Shown one piece after another: positions 4,750-62,180 of a stretch of DNA of 64,000 nt. The stretch lies in NCBI GenBank assembly GCA_963844965.1, contig CAWJQC010000007.1:192001-256000 (forward strand), in the 5' to 3' direction. Origin of the DNA: an uncultured bacterium. GTDB lineage: Bacteria > Patescibacteriota > Minisyncoccia > UBA6257 > 2-01-FULL-56-20. Made by a program: the position numbers and the translations under genes. Below the pieces are notes generated by a model that saw only the letters and a program-made list of their open reading frames with translations, had not been told where the DNA came from and did not search any database. How positions within the stretch are numbered: the first letter of the stretch is position 1; each line of letters starts with the position of its first letter.

Positions 4750-5218
4750 TGTCCACCTCCGACCTTTGGAGATAGTGCGCTTCGCGGCAGTGATAACAGC
4801 GAACCTTCTTGTCTGCCGCTGCAACTGCATCAGCGAATTGCGCAGCCGCTTCCTCGTTGTCCCATTGGCCAAGTTCGCGCTCCGCCACGGGCTCCAGGAA
4901 GAAGATTTCCTTTTCCTTGCCGGAGACCTTGCCGACATGCCCGTCAACGCCGGGGTTTTTCGCTACGACTCTCGCGATTGCGATGCGGGTATCGTTGCGG
5001 TCAGCATTGGCGAACACGAAGCAATCGCCGGGTAGTATGGCGAAAAGAGCGTGTTCGCGGTTCGCGTATCCCTTGCGTGGGACGAAGATGGGCTTTTTGG
5101 ATTTTCCTTCGCGGTCACAGATGATGACCGCATCGCCGGTGTTGGTGTACCCACCGCCGCATTCCCAAGCGGCGGTAAGACGTGACTTCGTTCGGTGGAC
5201 GGTGACGGTAGTATCCAT
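4742..5218 (-). CDS. hypothetical protein (about 158 aa) with C-terminal CxxC
   Basis: Start MDTTVTV preceded by AAAGGA Shine-Dalgarno; C-terminal CYHCREAHY; no clear family. Confidence 0.45.
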   Translation of the reverse strand: MDTTVTVHRTKSRLTAAWECGGGYTNTGDAVIICDREGKSKKPIFVPRKGYANREHALFAILPGDCFVFANADRNDTRIAIARVVAKNPGVDGHVGKVSGKEKEIFFLEPVAERELGQWDNEEAAAQFADAVAAADKKVRCYHCREAHYLQRSEVDNG

Positions 5219-8047: not shown

Positions 8048-9226
8048 ATGACATACAAAATGATGTTAACCGCTCGTCAGATTCTTGATTCGCGCGGGGA
8101 ACGGACGATAGAAGTTCAACTGGTAACTGGTAACCGGAAATTGGTAACTGGTTCTGTGCCGCAGGGGAAGAGCAAGGGTTCTTTTGAGGCGCATTACGTT
8201 CCGCCGGAGGTTGCCGTGCGGAATGTGGAGAAAATTATCGCGCCGAAGCTTAAAAATTTTGACGTTACGCGCCAGCGCGACATTGATTCATTTTTGATAA
8301 GGTTGGACGGCACGCCGATGAAATCCCGCCTCGGGGCGAACGCCATTTTGGGCGTTTCCATTGCTTGCGTGAAAGCCGGAGCGGCGGTTAAAAACGTGCC
8401 GCTTTGGAAATATATTGGGAAATTGCTTGGTGGCGTTCCGGCAAAAAAATCTGCAGGCCCGCGGCCATACGTCAACATGATCAACGGCGGCATGCACGCC
8501 GGAAATAATCTGCGTTTCCAGGAATATCTTGTGATTCCCAAGGCGAAAACTTTTTCGGAAGCCGTGTGGATCGCGACCGAATTGTACCAATCGCTAAAAA
8601 TTTATTTGGAAAAAACAAAAGGCAGAAGCGCGGCTAATTTGGGCGATGAAGGTGGCTTCGCGCCGGATTTCAAGGATGCGCTTGAACCCTTCGCCATATT
8701 GGAGAAAGTCGCGAAAAGCGCCGGCCTGCGCGGCAAAATTGATTTCGGACTGGATGCCGCGGCGACAGATGCCGGTTTGAACGTGAAAAAATTTTCGGAA
8801 ACCTACGCGGTGATGGCGAAGAAATTTAATTTGTTTTATTTGGAAGACCCGCTTCCCGAAAATGATTTTAAAGGATTCGCCGCTTTGCGGCAAGAGTTGC
8901 CGCGGCATCTTCTCGTCGCCGGCGATGACCTTACGGTGACAAATCTGGAACGGATGGAACTTGCGCACGATTCGGAGAGCGTGAACGCGATGATAGTGAA
9001 ACCGAATCAGATAGGCACGGTAACGGAGGCGATTGACGCCGTGCGCAAAGCGAAAGAATGGGGCTGGGCGGTTGTCGTTTCTCATAGGAGTGGTGAAACG
9101 AACGACGATTTCATCGCCGACTTCGCAGTAGGCGTTCGCGCCGACGGTTTCAAGCTCGGCGCTCCCGCCCGCGGCGAACGGATCGCGAAATATAACAGGT
9201 TGCTGGAGATCGAACGGGAATTCTGA
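8048..9226 (+). CDS. eno: enolase (phosphopyruvate hydratase)
   Basis: N-terminal ILDSRGERTIEV motif; full-length similarity pattern to enolases. Confidence 0.85.
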   Translation: MTYKMMLTARQILDSRGERTIEVQLVTGNRKLVTGSVPQGKSKGSFEAHYVPPEVAVRNVEKIIAPKLKNFDVTRQRDIDSFLIRLDGTPMKSRLGANAILGVSIACVKAGAAVKNVPLWKYIGKLLGGVPAKKSAGPRPYVNMINGGMHAGNNLRFQEYLVIPKAKTFSEAVWIATELYQSLKIYLEKTKGRSAANLGDEGGFAPDFKDALEPFAILEKVAKSAGLRGKIDFGLDAAATDAGLNVKKFSETYAVMAKKFNLFYLEDPLPENDFKGFAALRQELPRHLLVAGDDLTVTNLERMELAHDSESVNAMIVKPNQIGTVTEAIDAVRKAKEWGWAVVVSHRSGETNDDFIADFAVGVRADGFKLGAPARGERIAKYNRLLEIEREF

Positions 9227-9289: not shown

Positions 9290-9928
9290 TCAGAGGATAA
9301 TTTCCCATGGGTGATAATGTATTCTGCCATGGCTTTCAAGTTCAAAAATGCCGATTTGGTTTTCCAGCGGGCTCATGATGATGTGATAGCGGGAAATACG
9401 CCTGTTCTTGCGCATCCAGTCGCGCATTTCGCGGTAGTCCTCGCCGTGGCGGTGGGTTCTCTTGTAGTAGATGTTGGAACAGAGTGCTCCGTAGCCAACG
9501 GGATGTGTGTGGCCGAGCATGACCTTAAGCCCGCGTTTTTTCGCCCGTTCCAGTGATTTCGGGAGCAGAGGTCCCTCTTCCCAATGACAATCGCCGTATG
9601 AGCCGGTGATTCCGATAAGAGTTTCAAAGATGACGCCACTTGTTTCATCTATGAGGCACGTGAACGGTATTTCGCGACAGAGTTCCGCGGCCTTTATGAA
9701 AATGTGCTCCAGGGAGTTTCTGCCGCTCAAGGATTCCAGGAACGCTTCGCGGGCGATGCCTATCGGCCGCGGCCTGGTTCCGGTCCGCAATCTATCGTCG
9801 CCTCTGTAGCATGTAATGATCGCGTCTGCCATTCCGAGTTTTTTTGCGACAAGCAAAAGGTCGTGAAAATCGATCAGTTGTTTCACCGCTATCTTCCTCC
9901 CAAAAATGCTTCCGGTATTATAAGACAT
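9290..9928 (-). CDS. metallophosphoesterase family protein (YfcE/MJ0936-like)
   Basis: DFHDL, GDD and C-terminal GHTHP motifs in calcineurin-like phosphoesterase order. Confidence 0.5.
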   Translation of the reverse strand: MSYNTGSIFGRKIAVKQLIDFHDLLLVAKKLGMADAIITCYRGDDRLRTGTRPRPIGIAREAFLESLSGRNSLEHIFIKAAELCREIPFTCLIDETSGVIFETLIGITGSYGDCHWEEGPLLPKSLERAKKRGLKVMLGHTHPVGYGALCSNIYYKRTHRHGEDYREMRDWMRKNRRISRYHIIMSPLENQIGIFELESHGRIHYHPWEIIL

Positions 9929-10015: not shown

Positions 10016-10966
10016 TTATGCGAGGATTTCTCCGGCGATTTGCCTGACCCGCTCTCTGACCTCGGCTTTCTGGCTCTTTGTCCGGATTTTCGGGCCGGTG
10101 TATTTGCCGTGGAAGTCGTGGATTCGTGCGAAATAGACACTCACTATTTTTTCGGGATAGCGGGCCTTCGTCTGCCGGAAAATTTCGGAGCATTCCGTCG
10201 TGGAGGCCGGATTCCATTTTCCCTGTCGCCAGAGTGCGTGTCCGACCGAGCCCATGCGTGGAATGCAGCAGCAGAAAGCGACCTCTTTCGCCTCCATGAC
10301 TTCAAAAGCGAATTTTGCGGTTCTGAGCGCTTTGCGGATGGGGTCCAGGATGAGTGGCGGGGCGATAAGAACGTTCGCTCCGACCTGCGCGCCGTAAGAA
10401 TGCAGAAATTCCGCGAACGCGACGTAGTCCTTAAGTTCGCATCCTTTGTTGACGAGCGCGAGGTCGGCGTCGTCGGCGACTTCAAGGCCGGTGAAGATCT
10501 GCATATATGGTTTGAGTTCGGTGTGAAGGGCCTCAAGTATTTCTTCCACGCGCGTCTCAAGGAGGTTTGCGTCGTAGTCGTCAAACGCTCCATGGTGCCT
10601 CGCTCGTATCATTATCTCCAGTTCGCTTCCCAGCTTTTTCGCGTTGACGACCGTTGCGCGGCATTGCGTATGAAGTTCAAGGCCGTTGGATTCCACGAAA
10701 CGGTAGATGTGCTGCCGCAGGCGCCTCGGGATTTCCACGAACCAGCTGCCGTTGGTTTCAACCAGAATTTTGCCGGCTTTTAGAATATCCCCATAGTTCT
10801 TCCTGTCGTTTACGAACTTGTTGAAATGCCGGATCATCTGTTCGGCGGAGAGCGGCACGGGCGATACGCAACTTTTCATCAGGTGGAAGCCGCAGAAACT
10901 GCAGCCGCCGTTGTTGTAGACGTGATGGCAGATGTTGTAAGAATACGGATAGTATCTGTGACTCAT
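10016..10966 (-). CDS. putative Fe-S / radical-SAM-like enzyme (Cx8Cx2C cluster motif)
   Basis: N-terminal CHHVYNNGGCSFC cysteine motif; 316 aa; family not resolved. Confidence 0.35.
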   Translation of the reverse strand: MSHRYYPYSYNICHHVYNNGGCSFCGFHLMKSCVSPVPLSAEQMIRHFNKFVNDRKNYGDILKAGKILVETNGSWFVEIPRRLRQHIYRFVESNGLELHTQCRATVVNAKKLGSELEIMIRARHHGAFDDYDANLLETRVEEILEALHTELKPYMQIFTGLEVADDADLALVNKGCELKDYVAFAEFLHSYGAQVGANVLIAPPLILDPIRKALRTAKFAFEVMEAKEVAFCCCIPRMGSVGHALWRQGKWNPASTTECSEIFRQTKARYPEKIVSVYFARIHDFHGKYTGPKIRTKSQKAEVRERVRQIAGEILA

Positions 10967-11096
10967 TTCGTGACATCTCCGAATCGGATTGTTTTGAGCT
11001 AATCATAGGGTAGTGCATCGGCGCCCGGCCGTCAATATAGGAGATGTGACAGGCGCGGTATTTTCCTTGTTCCGAGTTAATGATAAACTGGAACAA

Positions 11097-12416
11097 ATGG
11101 CAAAAAGAAAAATCTATCTTGACCACGCCGCGACAACGCTGATGGACCCGCGCGTTTTGCGCGCGATGATGCTGTATTTTTCGGAGGAGTTCGGCAATCC
11201 GTCAAATTTGTACGGGCTCGGGCTCAGGGCGAAAAAAGCTGTCGCTGAGGCAACGCGGAGAATAACGGACGTCCTGAACTGCGCGCCGGATGAGTTCGTT
11301 TTTACCGGTTCGGCGACGGAGGCGGATAATCTGGCGATTGCCGGCACGGCGCGGGCGAACCGTAAGGCCGGGAATAAAATTATTATTTCTAACATAGAAC
11401 ACAAGGCGGTTCTTTCAACCTGTGAGGCGCTCAAAAAAGAGGGCTTTGAAATCGTGGAATTGCCTGCCCACAAAGACGGGCTCGTCCGCCCCGCCGAGTT
11501 GCGTAAACTTCTGGACAACAAAACGACTCTGGTCTCGGTGATGTATGCTAATAATGAAATCGGTACGATACAGCCCATTTCTAAAATTTCGGAAATTATC
11601 AGAAATTTTAGAAATGGAATTTCTAATTCCCAATTTCTAATTTCTAAAAAAGATTCCAATTACCCAATTACCAATTACCAATTACCGCTATTCCACACGG
11701 ATGCGGTGCAAGCACTGCAGTTTTTGGATTGTGACGTAAACAAGCTTGGCGTGGACTTGCTCACGATTTCCTCGCACAAGATTTATGGGCCGAAGGGCGT
11801 CGGCGGCTTGTACGTGCGGCGCGGCGTTGCGATCCAACCCATAATTTACGGCGGCGGACAGCAGCGCGGTCTGCGTCCGGGAACGGAAAACGTGCCGGCC
11901 ATCGTCGGCTTCGGCGAAGCGGTGAGGTTAGCGACAAGTAAAAAGCGACACGAAACAAGTAGAGTTAAAAAACTGCGGGACAAGCTGGAGAAGGGGATCC
12001 TCAGGTCAATTCCGAAGGTTGTCCTGAACGGCCACCCGACAAAGCGCCTGCCGAATTTTTTGAACGTTTCCATTTTGGACATTGAGGGCGAGGCGCTGCT
12101 TCTTTGTCTAGATGAGAAAGGAATCTTTGTTAACACCGGCTCGGCGTGCAATTCGGAAAGCTTGGAGCCGTCTCATGTTTTGACCGCGCTTGGAAATCCA
12201 TACGAATATATTCACGGGAGCATCCGCTTCACGCTCGGCAGGGGGACGACCTCCCGCGATATTGACTACGTTCTCCGCGAACTGCCGCCCATTGTGGCAA
12301 AATTGCGAAAAATATCGCCCCTTGATCTCAAACTTGGCGCGAAGAAAAAAATATCCGAGCCCAAGGCCTTCGTCGGCGGCCAAACGCCGCATTTTCTGCG
12401 GAAAAAACATGGATGA
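11097..12416 (+). CDS. cysteine desulfurase (NifS/IscS family), with in-frame low-complexity insertion
   Basis: IYLDHAATT start, PLP-lysine region [15 protein letters not shown], catalytic-loop GSACNS; likely start MAKRK at 11097. Confidence 0.85.
11585..11690 (+). repeat. AT-rich tandem repeats (aatttctaat units; ccaattac x4) inside the nifS coding frame
   Basis: Encodes [30 protein letters not shown] between conserved IscS blocks; related CCAATTAC/GGTAATTGG hairpin after proS (62101-62180). Confidence 0.6.
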
Positions 12417-12909
12417 ATTTCAGATAAGCAATAGCAAAATAATTCTTGTTCTCGGCAATATCACTAAAATTAAGGCCGATGCTATAGTTAACGCAGCGAA
12501 CAATTCCCTGATGGGTGGTGGCGGAGTGGACGGGGCGATACACAGAGCGGCAGGACCGGAGTTGGACGAAGAATGCAGGAAGCTCGGAGGATGTGCGGCC
12601 GGTGAAGCGAAAATAACGAAAGGATACGCTTTGCCGGCAAGGCATATAATCCACACGGTGGGACCGGTTTGGCGGGGCGGCAAAGAGAAAGAGGAGGAAA
12701 TTCTTGCGAGCTGTTACCGCAATTGCCTCGCGCTCGCGGCGGAGAACGGCATAAAATCTATCGCGTTTTCCTCAATTTCCACCGGAGCTTACGGTTTTCC
12801 AATCGAAAAGGCCGCGCCGATCGCTGTTCGTGAGGCGTCTAATTTTCTAAAAAATAGCGAAGTGCCTTCATCAGTAATTTTTGTTTTATTTTCGGATAAA
12901 GATTCTTGA
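12409..12909 (+). CDS. macro domain protein (ADP-ribose / O-acetyl-ADP-ribose deacetylase-like)
   Basis: [22 protein letters not shown] and GAYGFP macro-domain motifs; ATG overlaps the nifS stop (ATGGATGA). Confidence 0.8.
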
Positions 12910-14577: not shown

Positions 14578-14616
14578 AAAGAAAATAGAAATTAGAAAAT
14601 AGAAAATAGAATAAAA

Positions 14617-14877
14617 ATGGCCAATACCAAAGAATACCCTCGGAGCAGGCCCGGTTCCAAAATAGGGAAGATAGTCATTGACCGCGACCTTTGTATCGGC
14701 GCGGCTTCCTGTATCGCCGTTTCCGCCGAGACCTATGAATTGGACGGCGAGAATAAAGCCGTGGTGAAGGGCGCTGACGCCGTTGATGACGATGTGGTCA
14801 TCATGTCAGCCGAATCCTGTCCTGTGAAAGCGATTTTGCTTTACGACAAGGACGGAAAGCAGATCTTTCCCAAATAA
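14617..14877 (+). CDS. ferredoxin (single-cluster)
   Basis: CIGAASC...CP cysteine pattern; 86 aa. Confidence 0.65.
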   Translation: MANTKEYPRSRPGSKIGKIVIDRDLCIGAASCIAVSAETYELDGENKAVVKGADAVDDDVVIMSAESCPVKAILLYDKDGKQIFPK

Positions 14878-14885
14878 ACGAATTA

Positions 14886-14950
14886 TCCAATTAACGGATT
14901 AACGCATTAACGAATTTAATCCGTTAATTCGCAATTCGTTAATAAATAAT
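14886..14950. repeat. array of six TTAACG/CGTTAA half-sites forming overlapping inverted repeats
   Basis: ccaattaacggattaacgcattaacgaatttaatccgttaattcgcaattcgttaat; multiple alternative stems. Confidence 0.6.
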
Positions 14951-16247: not shown

Positions 16248-16799
16248 ATGACCAAAAAACTCAAAAAATTGAAACGTTTCGCCACGGCTTCGTTCGCCGT
16301 GTGGCCGTTTGATCCCGAGAGAGATTCGGAAAAAATCCATAATCGAATCGTAATAATCGGGCTTAATCCTTCTGCAAAGATTAAGTTCGGACAAAATTTT
16401 CACGGGGGGCGGCGTGATGGCTGGTATAAAGAAGGTTTTTCTCGGCCGCTATTCAGAGGATCTTATATGACCGATCTCATATCTCATTTTGAACCTAAAG
16501 CCAAAGTTGTAGAAAAGAAATGGAAGAAGGATGGGGAATTTAAGAGAAAAAATATAAAAAACTTAGAAAAACAGTTTAAGATTCTCGGGATTAAAAAATC
16601 TACACCTATCTTGTGTATTGGGCAAAATACAGGAAGACTTTTTTCTTCTACATTTCCAGAATATAAAGTATTCCCCATTAATCATCCTAACAGCTCCAGC
16701 TATCGCATGCCGAAAAACAATCGGGAGGTATTTCTAGAGAATCTTAGGAAAACTGGAAAGAAAATGCGGCCATATGTCCGAAGAGGATCAGCTTGGTAA
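16248..16799 (+). CDS. putative uracil-DNA glycosylase superfamily protein (MUG/TDG-like)
   Basis: IVIIGLNPS...GGRRDGWYK resembles MUG GINPG motif; C-terminal INHPNSSS resembles the NPSGLS motif. Confidence 0.4.
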   Translation: MTKKLKKLKRFATASFAVWPFDPERDSEKIHNRIVIIGLNPSAKIKFGQNFHGGRRDGWYKEGFSRPLFRGSYMTDLISHFEPKAKVVEKKWKKDGEFKRKNIKNLEKQFKILGIKKSTPILCIGQNTGRLFSSTFPEYKVFPINHPNSSSYRMPKNNREVFLENLRKTGKKMRPYVRRGSAW

Positions 16800-34395: not shown

Positions 34396-34466
34396 GCCAC
34401 CTTAGCTCAGCGGTAGAGCAGCACTTTCGTAAAGTGACGGTCCCGGTTCAAATCCGGGAGGTGGCT
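34396..34466 (+). tRNA. tRNA, anticodon most likely CGT (Thr); CCA not encoded
   Basis: Acceptor gccacct/aggtggc, D arm gctc-agcggta-gagc, anticodon loop ttCGTaa, T arm cccgg-ttcaaat-ccggg. Confidence 0.75.
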
Positions 34467-34615: not shown

Positions 34616-34808
34616 GAGAAGTGGCGGGGTGAAGCGGAGCAATGCTTTTCCGCCAGAGGCGGATAAACTCCAAGCAGAGGTTGGAGGCCTGCCCCGTACA
34701 ATTGCGAAGCAATTTGTTCGGGGTTCGACTCCTCCCTGCCGGCAGGCGGGCCTGCCGGCGCAGGCGGGTCTCCGGCTCCAGAAAATAAATTTAAAATATA
34801 CGTAATTA

Positions 34809-35253: not shown

Positions 35254-36429
35254 TGGACTACAAACAAGAACTTCAGGAGCTTGAGGCTGAAGCCCGGCGG
35301 TTAGCCGGGCGGCTTTGACGTAGCGGGCAAGGAGCGAGAGATAGAAAAGTTGGAAGCCGAAATGTCCAGCGCAGGTTTTTGGTCGGACCGTGCGGCGGCA
35401 GACGAGAAAATAAAAACTCTTGGCGAGTTGCGTGATTTGGTTGATAAGTTTCATGTGATCGAGACCGGAATCAAAGAATTAAACGAGAAGGATATTACTC
35501 CTGCGCCTCCGAATGCCTTATCTCACGGAGTTATACCTACTCCTATTTCAAAATCTAAAGAATTAAAGGATGAGGATTTTACTTTGGTGTCTCCGGATTC
35601 CCTATCACACGGAGTTATACCCACTCCAATTTCTAAAACTTCCAAATTTTTCGAAATAAAAAAGAAACTCAGAGACCTTGAACTGACCACACTTTTTACT
35701 GGCAGGTATGACAAGCAGGCGGCCGTGCTTTCGGTGTATCCGGGCGCGGGCGGCGATGATGCCGAAGATTGGGCGCGGATGCTCGCTGAAATGTATGAAA
35801 ATTACGCCAAACGCCGCGGCTGGCAGCATAAAATGATTGACGACAATCCGCGCTCGCGAACATTTGAAGTTCGCGGCGCCTACGCTTATGGTTATCTGAA
35901 GAAAGAAGCCGGCGTTCACCGGCTCGTCAGAATTTCGCCGTTCTCGGCGAAGAAACTGCGGCACACGTCGTTCGCTTTGGTTGAGGTCGTGCCGGATCTG
36001 CCACCGGTTGAAGAGGCCAAGCTGCAAATTCCGGAAAAAGATCTGAAGCTGGAGTTTTCGCGAGCGGGCGGGCCGGGCGGCCAGAATGTGAACAAAGTGG
36101 AAACGGCGGTGCGGATAGTACACTTACCGACGGGGCTCGCCGTGAGTTCCCGCGCCGAGCGGGCGCAGGCGCAGAACCGCGAGCGGGCAATGAAACTCCT
36201 GAAGGCCAAGATATTCCAGCTGATGGAAAAGAATCAGGTGAAGGAATTGAGTGAGCTTCGGGTAAAGGTGAAACCGGAGTGGGGTAATCAGATCCGTTCT
36301 TACGTTTTGAATCCTTACCAGTTGGTGAAAGATCACAGAACCGAGGCGGAAACCGTGAGAGTTCACGAGGTTCTTGCCGGTGATTTGGACTCATTCATTG
36401 AAGCAGAGGCGGAATCCGGGCTAACTTAA
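35254..36429 (+). CDS. prfB: peptide chain release factor 2 with programmed +1 frameshift (CTT TGA C at 35313-35319)
   Basis: ORF0 [21 protein letters not shown] stops at TGA followed by C; the +1 frame continues [16 protein letters not shown]...; SPF and GGQ motifs present. Confidence 0.9.
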
Positions 36430-36496: not shown

Positions 36497-37210
36497 ATGG
36501 AATTTCAAACAGGAAAAAATCAACCAATGGTAGTATTTCAATCCGTATCAAAGATTTACAACAGCCACGCAACCGCGCTGGAAGACGTGGATTTTCAGAT
36601 CAGTCCGGGCGAATTCGTGTCTCTGACCGGCCGTTCCGGAGCGGGGAAATCAACGGTCATTAAGCTTCTTGTCGGCGAGGAGAAGCCGTCAAAGGGCAGA
36701 ATTTTTTTCAGCCAATACGAGGTGAATAAGATAAAGGACAGCGACCTTCCGGCCTTCCGGCGGCATATCGGCGTTATTTTCCAGGATTTCCGCCTCCTGC
36801 CGACCAAGAACGCTTACGAGAACGTGGCGTTCGCGCTGGAAGTCGCCGGCCGGCCGCAGAGGGAAATTAAGGAACTTGTGCCGCAAGTGCTGGACATGGT
36901 CGGTTTGAGCGACAAGGCCGGAAATTTCCCGCACGAACTTTCGGGAGGAGAAAAACAAAGAGTGGCCATCGCGCGCGCGATGATCCACCGGCCGGAAATC
37001 ATCATCGCCGACGAGCCGACGGGAAATCTGGATCCCTTGAACACGTACGATATCATCAAGCTTCTTGAAAAGATTAACCAGCTTGGCACGACACTGCTCT
37101 TGGCCACTCACGACAGGGAAATAATCAACACGCTCGAGAGAAGAGTGATTACCTTGGATCGCGGGCGCGTGATAAGGGACGAGGCGAAAGGGAAGTACAT
37201 TCTCGTTTAA
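36497..37210 (+). CDS. ftsE: cell-division ABC ATPase FtsE-like
   Basis: Walker A GRSGAGKST, signature LSGGEKQRVAIARA, Walker B IIIADEPTGNLD; 237 aa; ftsX lies nearby. Confidence 0.8.
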   Translation: MEFQTGKNQPMVVFQSVSKIYNSHATALEDVDFQISPGEFVSLTGRSGAGKSTVIKLLVGEEKPSKGRIFFSQYEVNKIKDSDLPAFRRHIGVIFQDFRLLPTKNAYENVAFALEVAGRPQREIKELVPQVLDMVGLSDKAGNFPHELSGGEKQRVAIARAMIHRPEIIIADEPTGNLDPLNTYDIIKLLEKINQLGTTLLLATHDREIINTLERRVITLDRGRVIRDEAKGKYILV

Positions 37211-37301
37211 TTGTTAACCGCGGTCAACAATTAAACGAGAAATTTTTAATTTCCAATTTCTAATTTTCAAACCGGGGATAGATGAAGTTCTTAGCTTCCA
37301 A

Positions 37302-51321: not shown

Positions 51322-51352
51322 GTTAACGAGTTAACTCGTTAACGCGTTAATC
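51322..51352. repeat. TTAACG/CGTTAA palindrome (9-bp stem gttaacgag/ctcgttaac plus extra half-sites)
   Basis: ggttaacgagttaactcgttaacgcgttaat between minor and major pilin genes; same hexamer as the 14886-14950 array. Confidence 0.6.
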
Positions 51353-58293: not shown

Positions 58294-58382
58294 AACATAC
58301 GAAATTACGAAAACATACGAAAGTACGAAAAAATGCAGGAATCCTATTTCGTATGTTCGTACGGTTTCGTACTTTCGTAAGA
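58294..58382. repeat. array of about seven TACGAAA/TTTCGTA heptamers forming nested inverted repeats
   Basis: acatacgaaattacgaaaacatacgaaagtacgaaa ... tttcgtatgttcgtacggtttcgtactttcgta; upstream of mraY. Confidence 0.55.
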
Positions 58383-60495: not shown

Positions 60496-60857
60496 ATTGA
60501 AAGTGAGCGGGGTGCTCAAGAAGCGTGGACGATGTAGTCCTTATGACTGGAATACGGCGCCAGCCCGAAGGGCGCAGCGGCTCCGTGAGTGAACCAGAAC
60601 GCCCTTTTGGAACTTTGAACATTGTTCTCGGCCATCCTCAACATTTTAAGCTGGCCTTTCCCGTGGTCATAGTCCTTTTTGGGGTTAAAGCCGTCCCTGA
60701 GTATTTCTTCCTCTGAGCTGTCTTAATTATAGCAGATAACAAATTTAATGTCAAGCCCATTCCCAAGCGCCAAAAGCGGTGTTAATCTTTATAAAACAAG
60801 TCGTTTATTGGATGGTTTTTTCTATTTTCTACTTTCTAATTTCTATTTTCTAAACCA

Positions 60858-62105
60858 ATGCTTCAATCCGAACTTTTCACCAAGGTTTCGCGGGACGCGC
60901 CCAGCGATGAAGCCGCTTTGAGCGCCAAACTGCTCACGCGGGCGGGATTTGTGAGTAAGGTGATGGCCGGCGTTTACGAGTTTATGCCGCTCGGTTTGCG
61001 CGTCTTGAACAAGATCAACGCCGTCATCCGCGACGAGATGGACAAAACGGGCGCGCAGGAAATTTTCATGTCCGTTTTGCAGAACAAGGAGACATGGGCG
61101 AAGAGCGGGCGGTGGGAAACGGCGAAAGACGTCATGTATCAATTCAAGGACGCTTCCGGCAAAGAAGTCGGTCTCGGCTGGACGCACGAGGAGCCGCTCA
61201 CGGTCGCTGCCAAGAAATATATAAGTTCCTATCGGGACTTGCCGCGCGCCGTCTACCAGATCCAGACGAAGTTCAGGAACGAACCGCGGGCGAAGTCCGG
61301 CCTTTTGCGCAGCAAGGAATTTTTAATGAAGGATTTGTATAGTTTCCACGCCAGCGAAGAATGCCTGAATAAATATTACGAGCGCGTTGCCGTCGCTTAC
61401 GGCAATATATTCAAGAGAATTGGTCTGAACGCGCTGCGCACGGTGGCTTCCGGCGGTCTGTTCTCAAAATATTCCGACGAATTCCAGGTGCTTTGCGACG
61501 CCGGCGAGGATACGATTTTCCATTGCGAGAATTGTCCTTATGCCGCCAATCTTGACGTAGCCGAAGAACTTAAACTTAAGAATAAATGTCCAGCCCGCCT
61601 GCCGGACGGGCAGGAATGCGGGGGAAAGATAAAAAAGGCGAAAAGCATAGAAGTCGGCAATATTTTCAAGCTGGGAACGAAGTTCTCGGAAGCGTTCGGC
61701 CTGACTTTTAAGGATGAAAAAGGCGCCGAAAAACCGGTGATTATGGCTTCATACGGCATAGGGCCGGGGAGAGTGCTAGCGACTATCGTGGAAATTCATC
61801 ATGACGAAGCGGGAATTATCTGGCCGGAGGCGGTCGCGCCCTTCCGGGTGCATTTATTGGAGCTTGGCGGTGCGAAGGGCGAAGAGTTGTACAAATCTTT
61901 ACAAAAAGGTGGAATTGACGTACTCTATGACACGAGAGACATGTCGGCGGGCGAGAAATTCGCCGAGGCCGATCTTATCGGAATTCCTTGGCGCGCAGTC
62001 GTAAGCCAGAAAACCGGCGACAAAGTGGAGATAAAAAAACGTGGCGAAAAGGAGACGAAGCTAATGGACGTCAAGGAAGTCATCAAACAAATAAGTAATT
62101 CGTAA
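60858..62105 (+). CDS. proS: prolyl-tRNA synthetase (class II)
   Basis: Motif 2 FRNEPRAKSGLLRSKEFLMKDLYSF and motif 3 region; 415 aa. Confidence 0.85.
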   Translation: MLQSELFTKVSRDAPSDEAALSAKLLTRAGFVSKVMAGVYEFMPLGLRVLNKINAVIRDEMDKTGAQEIFMSVLQNKETWAKSGRWETAKDVMYQFKDASGKEVGLGWTHEEPLTVAAKKYISSYRDLPRAVYQIQTKFRNEPRAKSGLLRSKEFLMKDLYSFHASEECLNKYYERVAVAYGNIFKRIGLNALRTVASGGLFSKYSDEFQVLCDAGEDTIFHCENCPYAANLDVAEELKLKNKCPARLPDGQECGGKIKKAKSIEVGNIFKLGTKFSEAFGLTFKDEKGAEKPVIMASYGIGPGRVLATIVEIHHDEAGIIWPEAVAPFRVHLLELGGAKGEELYKSLQKGGIDVLYDTRDMSAGEKFAEADLIGIPWRAVVSQKTGDKVEIKKRGEKETKLMDVKEVIKQISNS

Positions 62106-62180
62106 TTGGTAACTGGTAATTGGCTGGTTCGGAAAAGATCCAAACAACCTAATCAGCCGATTACCAATTACTATTTACCG
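62101..62180. repeat. long hairpin built from GGTAATTGG/CCAATTACC units after proS
   Basis: taattggtaactggtaattgg ... ccgattaccaattactatttacc. Confidence 0.5.

Follow-up and report, generated by a model that had tools for sequence, protein, structure and literature searches.

Can dispersed repeat DNA become lodged within a housekeeping enzyme, and does it bring a function with it when it stays there? This question is raised by a cysteine desulfurase gene (nifS) of an uncultured Minisyncoccia bacterium, a member of the Patescibacteriota within the candidate phyla radiation (CPR). The gene lies in a 64,000-nt stretch of contig CAWJQC010000007.1 (positions 192,001 to 256,000; hereafter the window, to which coordinates refer unless a relative is named). 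An earlier note on this DNA had proposed that an intergenic repeat family was exapted as an in-frame surface insertion in this enzyme, unless the assembly was at fault. In this work, we found that the gene does carry a repeat-built insert in frame: the open reading frame (ORF) reads as quoted in that note, and its product matches the NifS/IscS family. Our preferred reading, to which we assign a probability of roughly 0.7, is that dispersed heptanucleotide repeats similar to the short tandemly repeated repetitive (STRR) sequences of cyanobacteria were fixed in frame in a permissive surface loop of NifS, where they form a tolerated passenger with no sign of a new function.

The host ORF spans 11013-12416 on the forward strand, with the ATG at 11097 being the most likely start. 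Its NCBIfam profile scores were 492.2 bits for NifS (TIGR03402) and 395.3 bits for IscS, with both matches split in two by the insert, and neither score reached the curated equivalog cut-off (530.75 and 643.2 bits, respectively). The host protein is a NifS-like family member that is not assignable to a curated equivalog. Its best matches to cysteine desulfurases in the PDB have an E-value of 1e-109. The hallmarks of group I cysteine desulfurases were all found, namely, the class V aminotransferase fold, the lysine (SSHK) that binds pyridoxal 5'-phosphate (PLP), the His/Asp of FHTDA.Q, and the catalytic Cys loop (GSAC); residues H200, D202, Q205, K228, and C351 are invariant in an 85-sequence alignment. 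The homologs of this protein bear the names Minisyncoccia, Paceibacterota, Parcubacteria, and Wolfebacteria.

The inserted tract, with a GC content of 0.20-0.30, differs from the rest of the gene in composition and length. Its GC content is 0.26-0.30 over 11550-11700, compared with about 0.5-0.6 elsewhere in nifS, and it is the longest AT-rich island within any gene of the window. Alignments with PDB structures break off at query residue 165 and restart at 198, such that 32 query residues stand against ~10 in the structures. The net excess is ~22 aa relative to the PDB homologs and 16-19 aa relative to the closest insert-free relatives, in which the corresponding segment is KFRGTTALPIFH (L090) or KFRKGIGSSTVPFFH (L091). 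These values are lower than the previously proposed ~26 extra codons; 'IRNFRNGI' and the terminal 'LP' belong to the native sequence, as the codons of L090 and L091 show.

Tandem Repeats Finder (TRF) identified three arrays in the tract, one of period 9 (11584-11615) and two made of head-to-tail 7-nt copies as in STRR sequences (Table 1). The pattern CCAATTAC occurs four times, at 11656, 11664, 11671, and 11678, with one extra C in the first unit. These copies had been described as four tandem octamers; the number holds, but the copies overlap at spacings of 8, 7, and 7, and the unit is therefore a heptamer. The extra DNA alone (11610-11695) consists of two direct arrays, has no self-contained palindrome, and folds no better than shuffled sequences (z -1.5). 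No terminal inverted repeats or target-site duplication were seen around 11618-11686. The strongest structure of the tract is the hairpin of native codons at 11575-11617, in which ATTTCTAAAATTTC (encoding ISKI-S) pairs with GAAATTTTAGAAAT (R-NFRN), 'ISKI' being the reverse-complement reading of 'NFRN'; this hairpin exceeds 500/500 synonymous-codon resamplings. That part of the repetitive tract is native, that the extra DNA is two direct arrays, and that the loop is a recurrent hotspot (see below) all go beyond the earlier note. Other AT-rich islands in ORFs (at 16502, 27486, 29929, and 112) were examined as candidate repeats and rejected as ordinary Lys/Asn-rich coding sequence.

Table 1. Positions of the host gene, the parts of its insert, and the related arrays and hairpins in the window.
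Feature	Position	Strand	Basis and remarks
NifS/IscS-type cysteine desulfurase coding sequence (CDS), host of the insert	11097..12416	+	439 aa; NCBIfam, PDB matches, AlphaFold2 model
Hairpin of native conserved codons P160-G174	11575..11617	+	43 nt; minimum free energy -20.5 kcal/mol, z -3.9; insert begins at its 3' foot
Extra codons S176-Q195	11622..11681	+	Codon-level comparison with the closest insert-free relatives L090 and L091; net +16 to +19 aa
AATTTCT-type heptamer array, x4.3	11618..11647	+	TRF; inverse of native AGAAATT codons; the interruption AATTCCC stands at a would-be in-frame TAA
A-rich spacer (AAAAGATT) between the two arrays	11648..11655	+	Alignment; also kept in the L084 insert
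CCAATTA heptamer array, x4.3, 95% match	11656..11686	+	TRF, pattern search; last unit runs into native Leu-Pro codons
Second in-frame heptamer array, AACTGGT/AATTGGT x5, inside enolase (8048-9226)	8118..8152	+	TRF, Pfam, PDB alignment
AGAAAAT heptamer array, x4.6, upstream of a small ORF	14580..14611	+	TRF; related unit in opposite orientation, about 85% match
Intergenic AATTTYY heptamer array after an ABC ATPase gene	37241..37270	+	TRF; best match to the first array (26 nt, 92%, E 6e-6)
TTTTCTA heptamer array, x5, directly upstream of proS	60818..60852	+	TRF; related unit, 85-86% match to the insert
Hairpin straddling the proS stop codon	62095..62180		GTAATTG/GTAACTG units and inverse CAATTAC; -34.5 kcal/mol, z -6.5; same unit family as 11656-11686

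The units of the insert recur within the 64-kb window more often than expected by chance. There are 7 matches to CCAATTAC in the window compared with 1.7 expected, and the 3 beyond nifS are all located in the hairpin after proS (62095-62180). The proS identity of the gene before this hairpin was confirmed, and the proposal that the hairpin is built of the same unit is borne out by these matches and by a BLAST identity of 90-95%. When the insert was compared with the rest of the window, BLAST returned 21 matches, compared with 2.4 for shuffled queries, which upholds the idea that intergenic repeats share their units with the in-frame insert. The best of these matches are at 37241-37266 (92%), 62095-62123 (90-95%), 60826-60854, 62160-62180, and 14580-14611 (about 85%), and recurrence at dispersed loci beyond chance, as in STRR sequences, was found at 37241, 60818, 14580, 62095, and 62160. 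The same runs had also been reported at three other loci; this is correct for 37241-37266, but the units at 14580 and 60818 (AGAAAAT/TTTTCTA) are related to those of the insert, not identical.

Arrays of period 7 or 8 with a TRF score of at least 40 number 8 in the window and 0 in 30 block shuffles that keep local composition, and period 7 is the commonest tandem-repeat period. The intergenic arrays of the window fold as strong hairpins (z -3.4 to -6.5). Further intergenic hairpins of like build use other units, namely, AATTAACG at 14873-14943, ATACGAAA at 58294-58379, and GTTAACG at 51322-51350, and the intergenic hairpins in related Parcubacteria loci are likewise built of heptamers. As a separate observation, a near-perfect 42-nt palindrome (37200-37241; ~19-bp hairpin, z -5.3), whose overlapping arms of 25 nt are 96% complementary, spans the stop codon of the ABC-transporter ATPase gene, with the AATTTYY array directly after it.

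These matches bear on a purely local origin, in which slippage and inverted duplication would have produced the insert on the spot from AT-rich codons of the gene itself, and its likeness to intergenic repeats would be convergence among AT-rich heptamers. Several observations would fit such an origin: the AATTTCT array inverts the native codons AGAAATT, the main hairpin is formed by native codons, the last CCAATTA unit blends into the native TTA CCG, and identity at 14580 and 60818 is no higher than about 85%. We nevertheless regard it as unlikely. The insert-free relatives have no native seed for the CCAATTA unit, a unit of this family builds the proS hairpin at 90-95% identity, and CCAATTA is found in frame in many unrelated genes elsewhere (see below). 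In addition, the match at 37241-37266 extends over 26 nt at 92% identity (E 6e-6).

Both in-frame arrays of the window carry changes where their repeats would introduce a stop codon. A pure (AATTTCT)n repeat runs into TAA within 2-6 codons in every frame. By comparison, no frame of (CCAATTA)n contains a stop and every frame of its complement does, which is why the CCAATTA array of nifS has no inverse partner within the gene. The nifS array leaves the ideal repeat precisely at the point that would give an in-frame TAA (TTC TAA to TCC CAA), and the first array ends (AAA AAA GAT) just ahead of the next in-frame TAA position. In enolase, the second in-frame array has the antisense orientation of the ACCAATT/ACCAGTT family, i.e., of the proS-hairpin unit, and it also has a stop-removing change (TGG TAA to CGG AAA). 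Since both arrays depart from the repeat exactly at an in-frame TAA, their sequences indicate that both are probably translated. These patterns suggest a rule for repeats that survive in genes: only the stop-free strand is used, and point changes occur wherever a stop would enter the frame.

The enolase array was also considered as a second insertion. This was rejected because the array adds only ~1 residue in the alignment with PDB enolases, and it therefore overlays a native variable β-hairpin. At the same site, CGATTGG heptamers are present in the relative L084 and a GC-rich extension (+10 aa) in L085.

An alternative explanation is that the tract is an artefact of assembly or an intervening sequence that is not translated (an intron, an intein, or a translational bypass), given that assemblers can be misled by low-complexity repeats and that hairpins occur in bypass elements. 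We consider this very improbable. An independent Logan assembly of run ERR10755942 includes a 3,066-nt contig that encodes exactly the same protein; it matches the window over 2,804 nt apart from 2 mismatches (at 10960 and 10972), both outside nifS, and the tract is identical. Moreover, a relative from a different sample with a 70%-identical protein (L084; protein P0007) has a collinear insert composed of AATTTCC units, AAAAAAATCC, four (N)AATTACC units, and then GCTATTCCAC. Because of the identical independent assembly and this collinear insert, an artefact, which the earlier note had left open, is excluded for practical purposes. As for intervening sequences, inteins and group I/II introns are much longer than this tract of 60-90 nt, which in every case keeps the frame and lacks stops, carries substitutions that specifically remove stops, and has no Rfam match. 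A repeat origin would be in doubt if relatives encoded the same insert with non-repetitive DNA; the contrary was found, as L084, the sole relative with the same insert, uses the same repeats.

The insert of L084 contains a 30-nt GC-rich hairpin (CCGCCTGCGCCGAGGCTTCGGTGGGCAGGC; 5086-5130 of that locus), which is nested in the heptamer insert between two copies of AATTTCCAATTTCC (14-nt direct repeat). A similar nested pair of hairpins was observed in L086. In the window, a GC-rich tandem repeat with period 18 (CCTGCCGGCAGGCGGG-like; 34735-34776), ~270 nt downstream of a tRNA gene (34396-34466), resembles the nested hairpin of L084.

The loop that holds the insert is a hotspot for insertions among NifS homologs. 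In the alignment of the 120 best homologs, the segment between GT.Q and FH has a modal length of 22 aa (47/120) and reaches 81 aa, with 39 aa in the window. At least 6 extra aa are present at this site in 43 of the 120, far above any other internal position. As an outgroup control, we used the 58 distant NifS genes with at most 51% identity among the matches listed; the segment is 15 aa in 47 of these 58, and the longest segments among those listed (25-32 aa) are all from Patescibacteria. The helix-to-strand loop of NifS emerges as a natural, clade-wide insertion-tolerant site, of use for cysteine desulfurase engineering and as a marker to tell strains of uncultivated Parcubacteria apart.

Insert peptides from different lineages are not related to one another, and many resemble translated palindromes. 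All homolog inserts inspected as DNA (11/11) are hairpins or tandem 7-8-mer arrays, and the eight homolog regions that were folded, the window included, all form hairpins (z -2.7 to -11). For example, the insert of P0002 has CCGAA-type octamers followed by their inverse, that of P0005 has AGAAAAY heptamers followed by their inverse, and that of P0038 has CAAGT/ACTTG arrays, while P0033, P0057, and P0068 have a common GC-rich palindrome. This GC palindrome is 85-90% identical between three lineages, compared with 68-74% for the flanking CDS. After masking of the hotspot, a rough neighbor-joining (NJ) tree intermingles insert-bearing sequences with insert-free ones, and the same insert types are found in separate clades.

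Where DNA was at hand, minor hotspots of NifS with strong in-frame hairpins were found after residue ~90 (L084) and after residue 217 (L082). The latter is a 63-nt in-frame palindrome (10653-10733 of L082) between direct repeats of 9 nt (GGGGTTGAC/GGGGTTGAT, GVD in either case) that look like a target-site duplication, and a second copy of the ends of this palindrome is located upstream of nifS (9721-9790). The homolog P0027 has an insert at the same place.

This hotspot may be the result of targeting as well as tolerance. Y1 transposases of the IS200/IS605 type and those associated with repetitive extragenic palindromic (REP) sequences (REP-associated tyrosine transposases, RAYTs) recognize hairpins on single-stranded DNA. 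Small hairpin or repeat elements could similarly home to this exact site, for instance by recognizing the hairpin-prone, AT-rich native codons on single-stranded DNA, such that the hotspot would be mutational and not just tolerated. The same insert families occur at the site in separate clades beside insert-free sisters, the GC palindrome is better conserved than its flanking CDS, and the inserts start at the 3' foot of the native hairpin in the window, L084, L085, and L086. Nested insertions in L084 (GC hairpin with the 14-nt direct repeat) and L086, and the L082 palindrome with its 9-nt direct repeat and nearby second copy, point in the same direction. Furthermore, L091, which is insert-free, has a 182-aa gene with a weak Y1_Tnp Pfam match between PPDK and enolase-nifS (8055-8603 of L091).

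We consider such homing rather unlikely, although it deserves attention. No homolog of the L091 Y1_Tnp protein was found by tblastn in the window, L082, L084, L085, L088, or L089, and the extra DNA of the window has neither terminal inverted repeats nor a target-site duplication, with a z-score of only -1.5 for its own fold. The NJ tree is rough, and the recurrence could reflect ancestral presence with many losses; likewise, hairpin constraint alone could conserve a palindrome. The native hairpin is absent from the insert-free relatives, and it may have resulted from the insert instead of attracting it.

The native-codon hairpin was also compared with synonymous resamplings. In 4 of 12 lineages, its strength goes beyond what the protein sequence calls for, namely, in the window (0/500), L084 (1/500), L086 (5/500), and L085 (12/500). 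These four have AT-rich heptamer inserts, and no excess was found in insert-free or GC-palindrome lineages. We read the excess as homogenization of the native codons with the adjacent repeats; the repeats may instead have been directed to a hairpin that was already in place.

A functional nucleic acid structure would be another explanation for these hairpins: a hairpin in nifS mRNA or DNA might regulate the expression, processing, or stability of nifS-nifU, with the sequence turning over while the structure is kept. The scores of the inserts folded as DNA (z -2.7 to -11), the excess of the native-codon hairpin in the four lineages, and stems that differ in sequence among lineages while retaining their pairing are in line with this idea. 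It is improbable, however, as more than half of the homologs are insert-free, the insert-free relatives do not have the native hairpin, and like hairpins occur in frame at other loops of NifS and in other genes. An Rfam scan identified two tRNAs only, with no match for the nifS hairpin, and scans for terminators and promoters gave results at or near chance.

For the consequence at the protein level, we built an AlphaFold2 model with the 85-sequence alignment (predicted local distance difference test [pLDDT] score, 87; predicted template modeling score, 0.87). In Foldseek comparisons with NFS1/IscS/NifS structures, the model has template modeling scores of 0.92-0.97 and root-mean-square deviations of 1.3-2.5 Å. 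It has a helix at 161-179, a coil at 180-197, and the β-strand LFHTD at 198-202, with pLDDT <50 at residues 180-191; the insert site is located between the helix and the β-strand carrying His200/Asp202. The structural alignment that had been suggested as a check therefore places the insert in a predicted coil loop, i.e., in frame at a tolerated position with the fold intact, as is the case for Rickettsia palindromic elements (RPEs). In fold-type I PLP enzymes, the general architecture puts the loop entering this strand opposite the PLP-contacting face. Because the PLP-contacting His/Asp are at the C-terminal end of the strand, the entering loop should lie on the opposite face, and the insert loop of the model would accordingly be on the side of the large domain that faces away from the PLP site.

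The claim of an exapted surface insertion stands only in part. A predicted disordered loop on an intact enzyme agrees with the model, but exaptation does not, considering the unconserved peptide, the low model confidence, and a composition dictated by the repeat. A new role for the loop, e.g., docking of a CPR-specific partner, would be consistent with the retention of the insert since the split between the window lineage and L084, and with the loop being longer in Patescibacteria than elsewhere even before the insert. However, the peptides are unrelated between lineages, the loop is a low-pLDDT coil whose composition follows from the repeat unit, and stop removal is the only visible selection. 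There is little chance that such a role exists.

We thus favor repeats fixed in a permissive loop as a tolerated passenger, and propose the following mechanism. Slipped-strand mispairing, together with template switching, would create and extend the arrays in AT-rich DNA; we infer this mode of growth because the arrays are tandem and inverse and because the first array copies native codons. This first array would be an inverse copy of the native AGAAATT codons that lengthened the native-codon hairpin, and the second array may represent a half-hairpin whose partner cannot exist in the ORF. The arrays would be translated into a disordered loop of about 20 aa, with selection limited to keeping the frame and removing stops. 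The hotspot would mainly reflect loop tolerance, possibly aided by the AT-rich, hairpin-prone native codons, and the insert would be neutral or slightly deleterious passenger DNA and not an adaptation.

Several points weigh against this reading. Slippage accounts for the growth of the arrays, not for the dispersal of a heptamer unit to many loci, and translation of the insert is itself deduced from its sequence. The insert has been kept since the window lineage and L084 split, which would be compatible with a function. The recurrence of insert types at one site, together with the conservation of the GC palindrome, hints at site-directed insertion or segment exchange, and the excess of the native-codon hairpin in 4/12 lineages could reflect selection on nucleic acid structure.

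The CCAATTA unit is not confined to the window. A scan of metagenome contigs for (CCAATTA)3CC found at least 120 loci with at least 130 arrays among those listed, in which the median copy number is 6 and the highest 18. Among the 130 arrays listed, 20 have an inverse partner within 200 nt, and 24 are inside long ORFs, all in the open orientation and reading 'PITNYQL'. The Pfam-confirmed hosts of in-ORF arrays, among the matches listed, are Mur ligase, ArgRS, LeuRS, PheRS-alpha, RecG, DnaG, class A penicillin-binding protein, molybdopterin oxidoreductase, and chorismate synthase. Among the 120 loci listed, 47 are rich in the cyanobacterial palindrome HIP1 and therefore look cyanobacterial; most in-ORF cases are not HIP1-rich. 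The unit is thus common to cyanobacteria-like and other organisms, and the case in the window is one instance of a broad, little-described phenomenon. For genome annotation, low-complexity peptides such as PITNYQL in CPR or cyanobacterial proteins should be treated as translated repeat DNA and not as domains. In addition to its PITNYQL array, a metagenomic RecG (L165, 2292-4865) has several repeat-like in-frame segments (CHPELVSGSQ, ACHSGLDPESS, and ISNSKFLNSNQFSNSNSQ), which suggests that some CPR-like genes are heavily loaded with translated repeats.

More speculatively, a number of very small elements, hairpins or heptamers of several unrelated families, may target the NifS loop across CPR, with a structure- or sequence-directed mechanism that places short repeats at sites prone to form hairpins, genes included, and that has left the in-frame (CCAATTA)n arrays in at least nine other Pfam-confirmed core enzyme families as its footprint. 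We hold this to be doubtful. If true, CPR genomes would harbor a new class of ultra-small mobile DNA that remodels the surface loops of core proteins.

To our knowledge, in-frame 'selfish' repeats in essential genes are a textbook subject only for Rickettsia. RPEs are dispersed repeat DNA found in frame in unrelated housekeeping genes, where they are translated at positions tolerated by the fold (PMC10969869). The window insert is similar to RPEs in being in-frame, apparently translated repeat DNA at a tolerated position, with copies also in non-coding DNA of the same genome. In contrast, RPEs are palindromes of ~100-150 bp with conserved family sequences and peptide, whereas the window insert is ~60 nt of two direct arrays with no fold of its own, in a host from another phylum. 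Judged on form, it is not a self-contained palindrome of ~100-150 bp from a conserved family. [quoted passage not shown] A CPR bacterium thus shows a Rickettsia-like outcome with different DNA, namely, tandem heptamers.

The STRR sequences of cyanobacteria (Calothrix/Nostoc) are tandem heptanucleotides with few units per array at many loci, mainly intergenic and often near gene ends, and Elhai et al. reportedly described very small dispersed repeats in cyanobacteria in 2008. The window arrays resemble them in having tandem 7-nt units, few per array, with one unit at many loci; they differ in that the host belongs to Parcubacteria, the arrays are commonly paired with their inverse as hairpins, and some are likely translated in essential genes. 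The Calothrix heptanucleotides are cited in a study that reported heptamer over-representation in bacteria and hypothesized polymerase slippage as the cause (PMC4692102), and growth of the window arrays by slippage agrees with this hypothesis. In Geobacter metallireducens, the heptanucleotide GGACCGG repeated four times in tandem forms elements that occur both in genes and between them (PMC2700814). Those elements differ from the window arrays in being GC-rich, from another phylum, and proposed as regulatory RNA elements, and no analysis of reading frame or protein position is reported in the text consulted (PMC2700814).

The window insert also has some features in common with REP sequences, their paired forms (REPINs), and MITEs, namely, short multi-copy intergenic DNA that forms hairpins, nested insertions, and a Y1-transposase-like gene in one relative (L091). 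It differs from them in having no conserved ends, terminal inverted repeats, or target-site duplication, and in units that vary by locus; no RAYT/Y1 transposase was found in the window. As in contingency loci, a tandem repeat with a unit length that is not a multiple of 3 lies within a gene, and a one-unit change would therefore shift the frame. In contrast to contingency loci, there are only ~4 units, and the host is an essential housekeeping gene instead of a surface or virulence gene. The 90%-identity cluster of the NifS protein has a single member, and no length polymorphism is on record.

Our literature search found no description of in-frame heptamer, hairpin, or palindrome inserts in CPR/Patescibacteria, nor of the peptide NYQLPITNYQL. 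The class of outcome, i.e., in-frame repeats in genes, is known, and its form in CPR is undescribed in the literature searched.

Several observations on neighboring and other genes were also made. In prfB of the window (peptide chain release factor 2; ORF 35350-36429), an 84-nt unit is duplicated in tandem and in frame at 35469-35638; the two copies (80% match; 28 aa x2) lie in the N-terminal part, and the NCBIfam alignment starts only at residue 99. In L082, a P-type ATPase (HMBD and E1-E2 ATPase domains) carries, in frame and close to residue 55, a GC-rich hairpin with a 16-bp stem (667-738). For the nifS-nifU neighborhood, nifU is within ~15 nt of nifS or overlapping it on the 3' side in 7 relatives with gene calls (L082, L085, L087, L089, L091, L092, and L093), and it lies ~140 nt after nifS in L088. 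In the window, a gene for a macro-domain O-acetyl-ADP-ribose deacetylase (12406-12909) is present between nifS and nifU.

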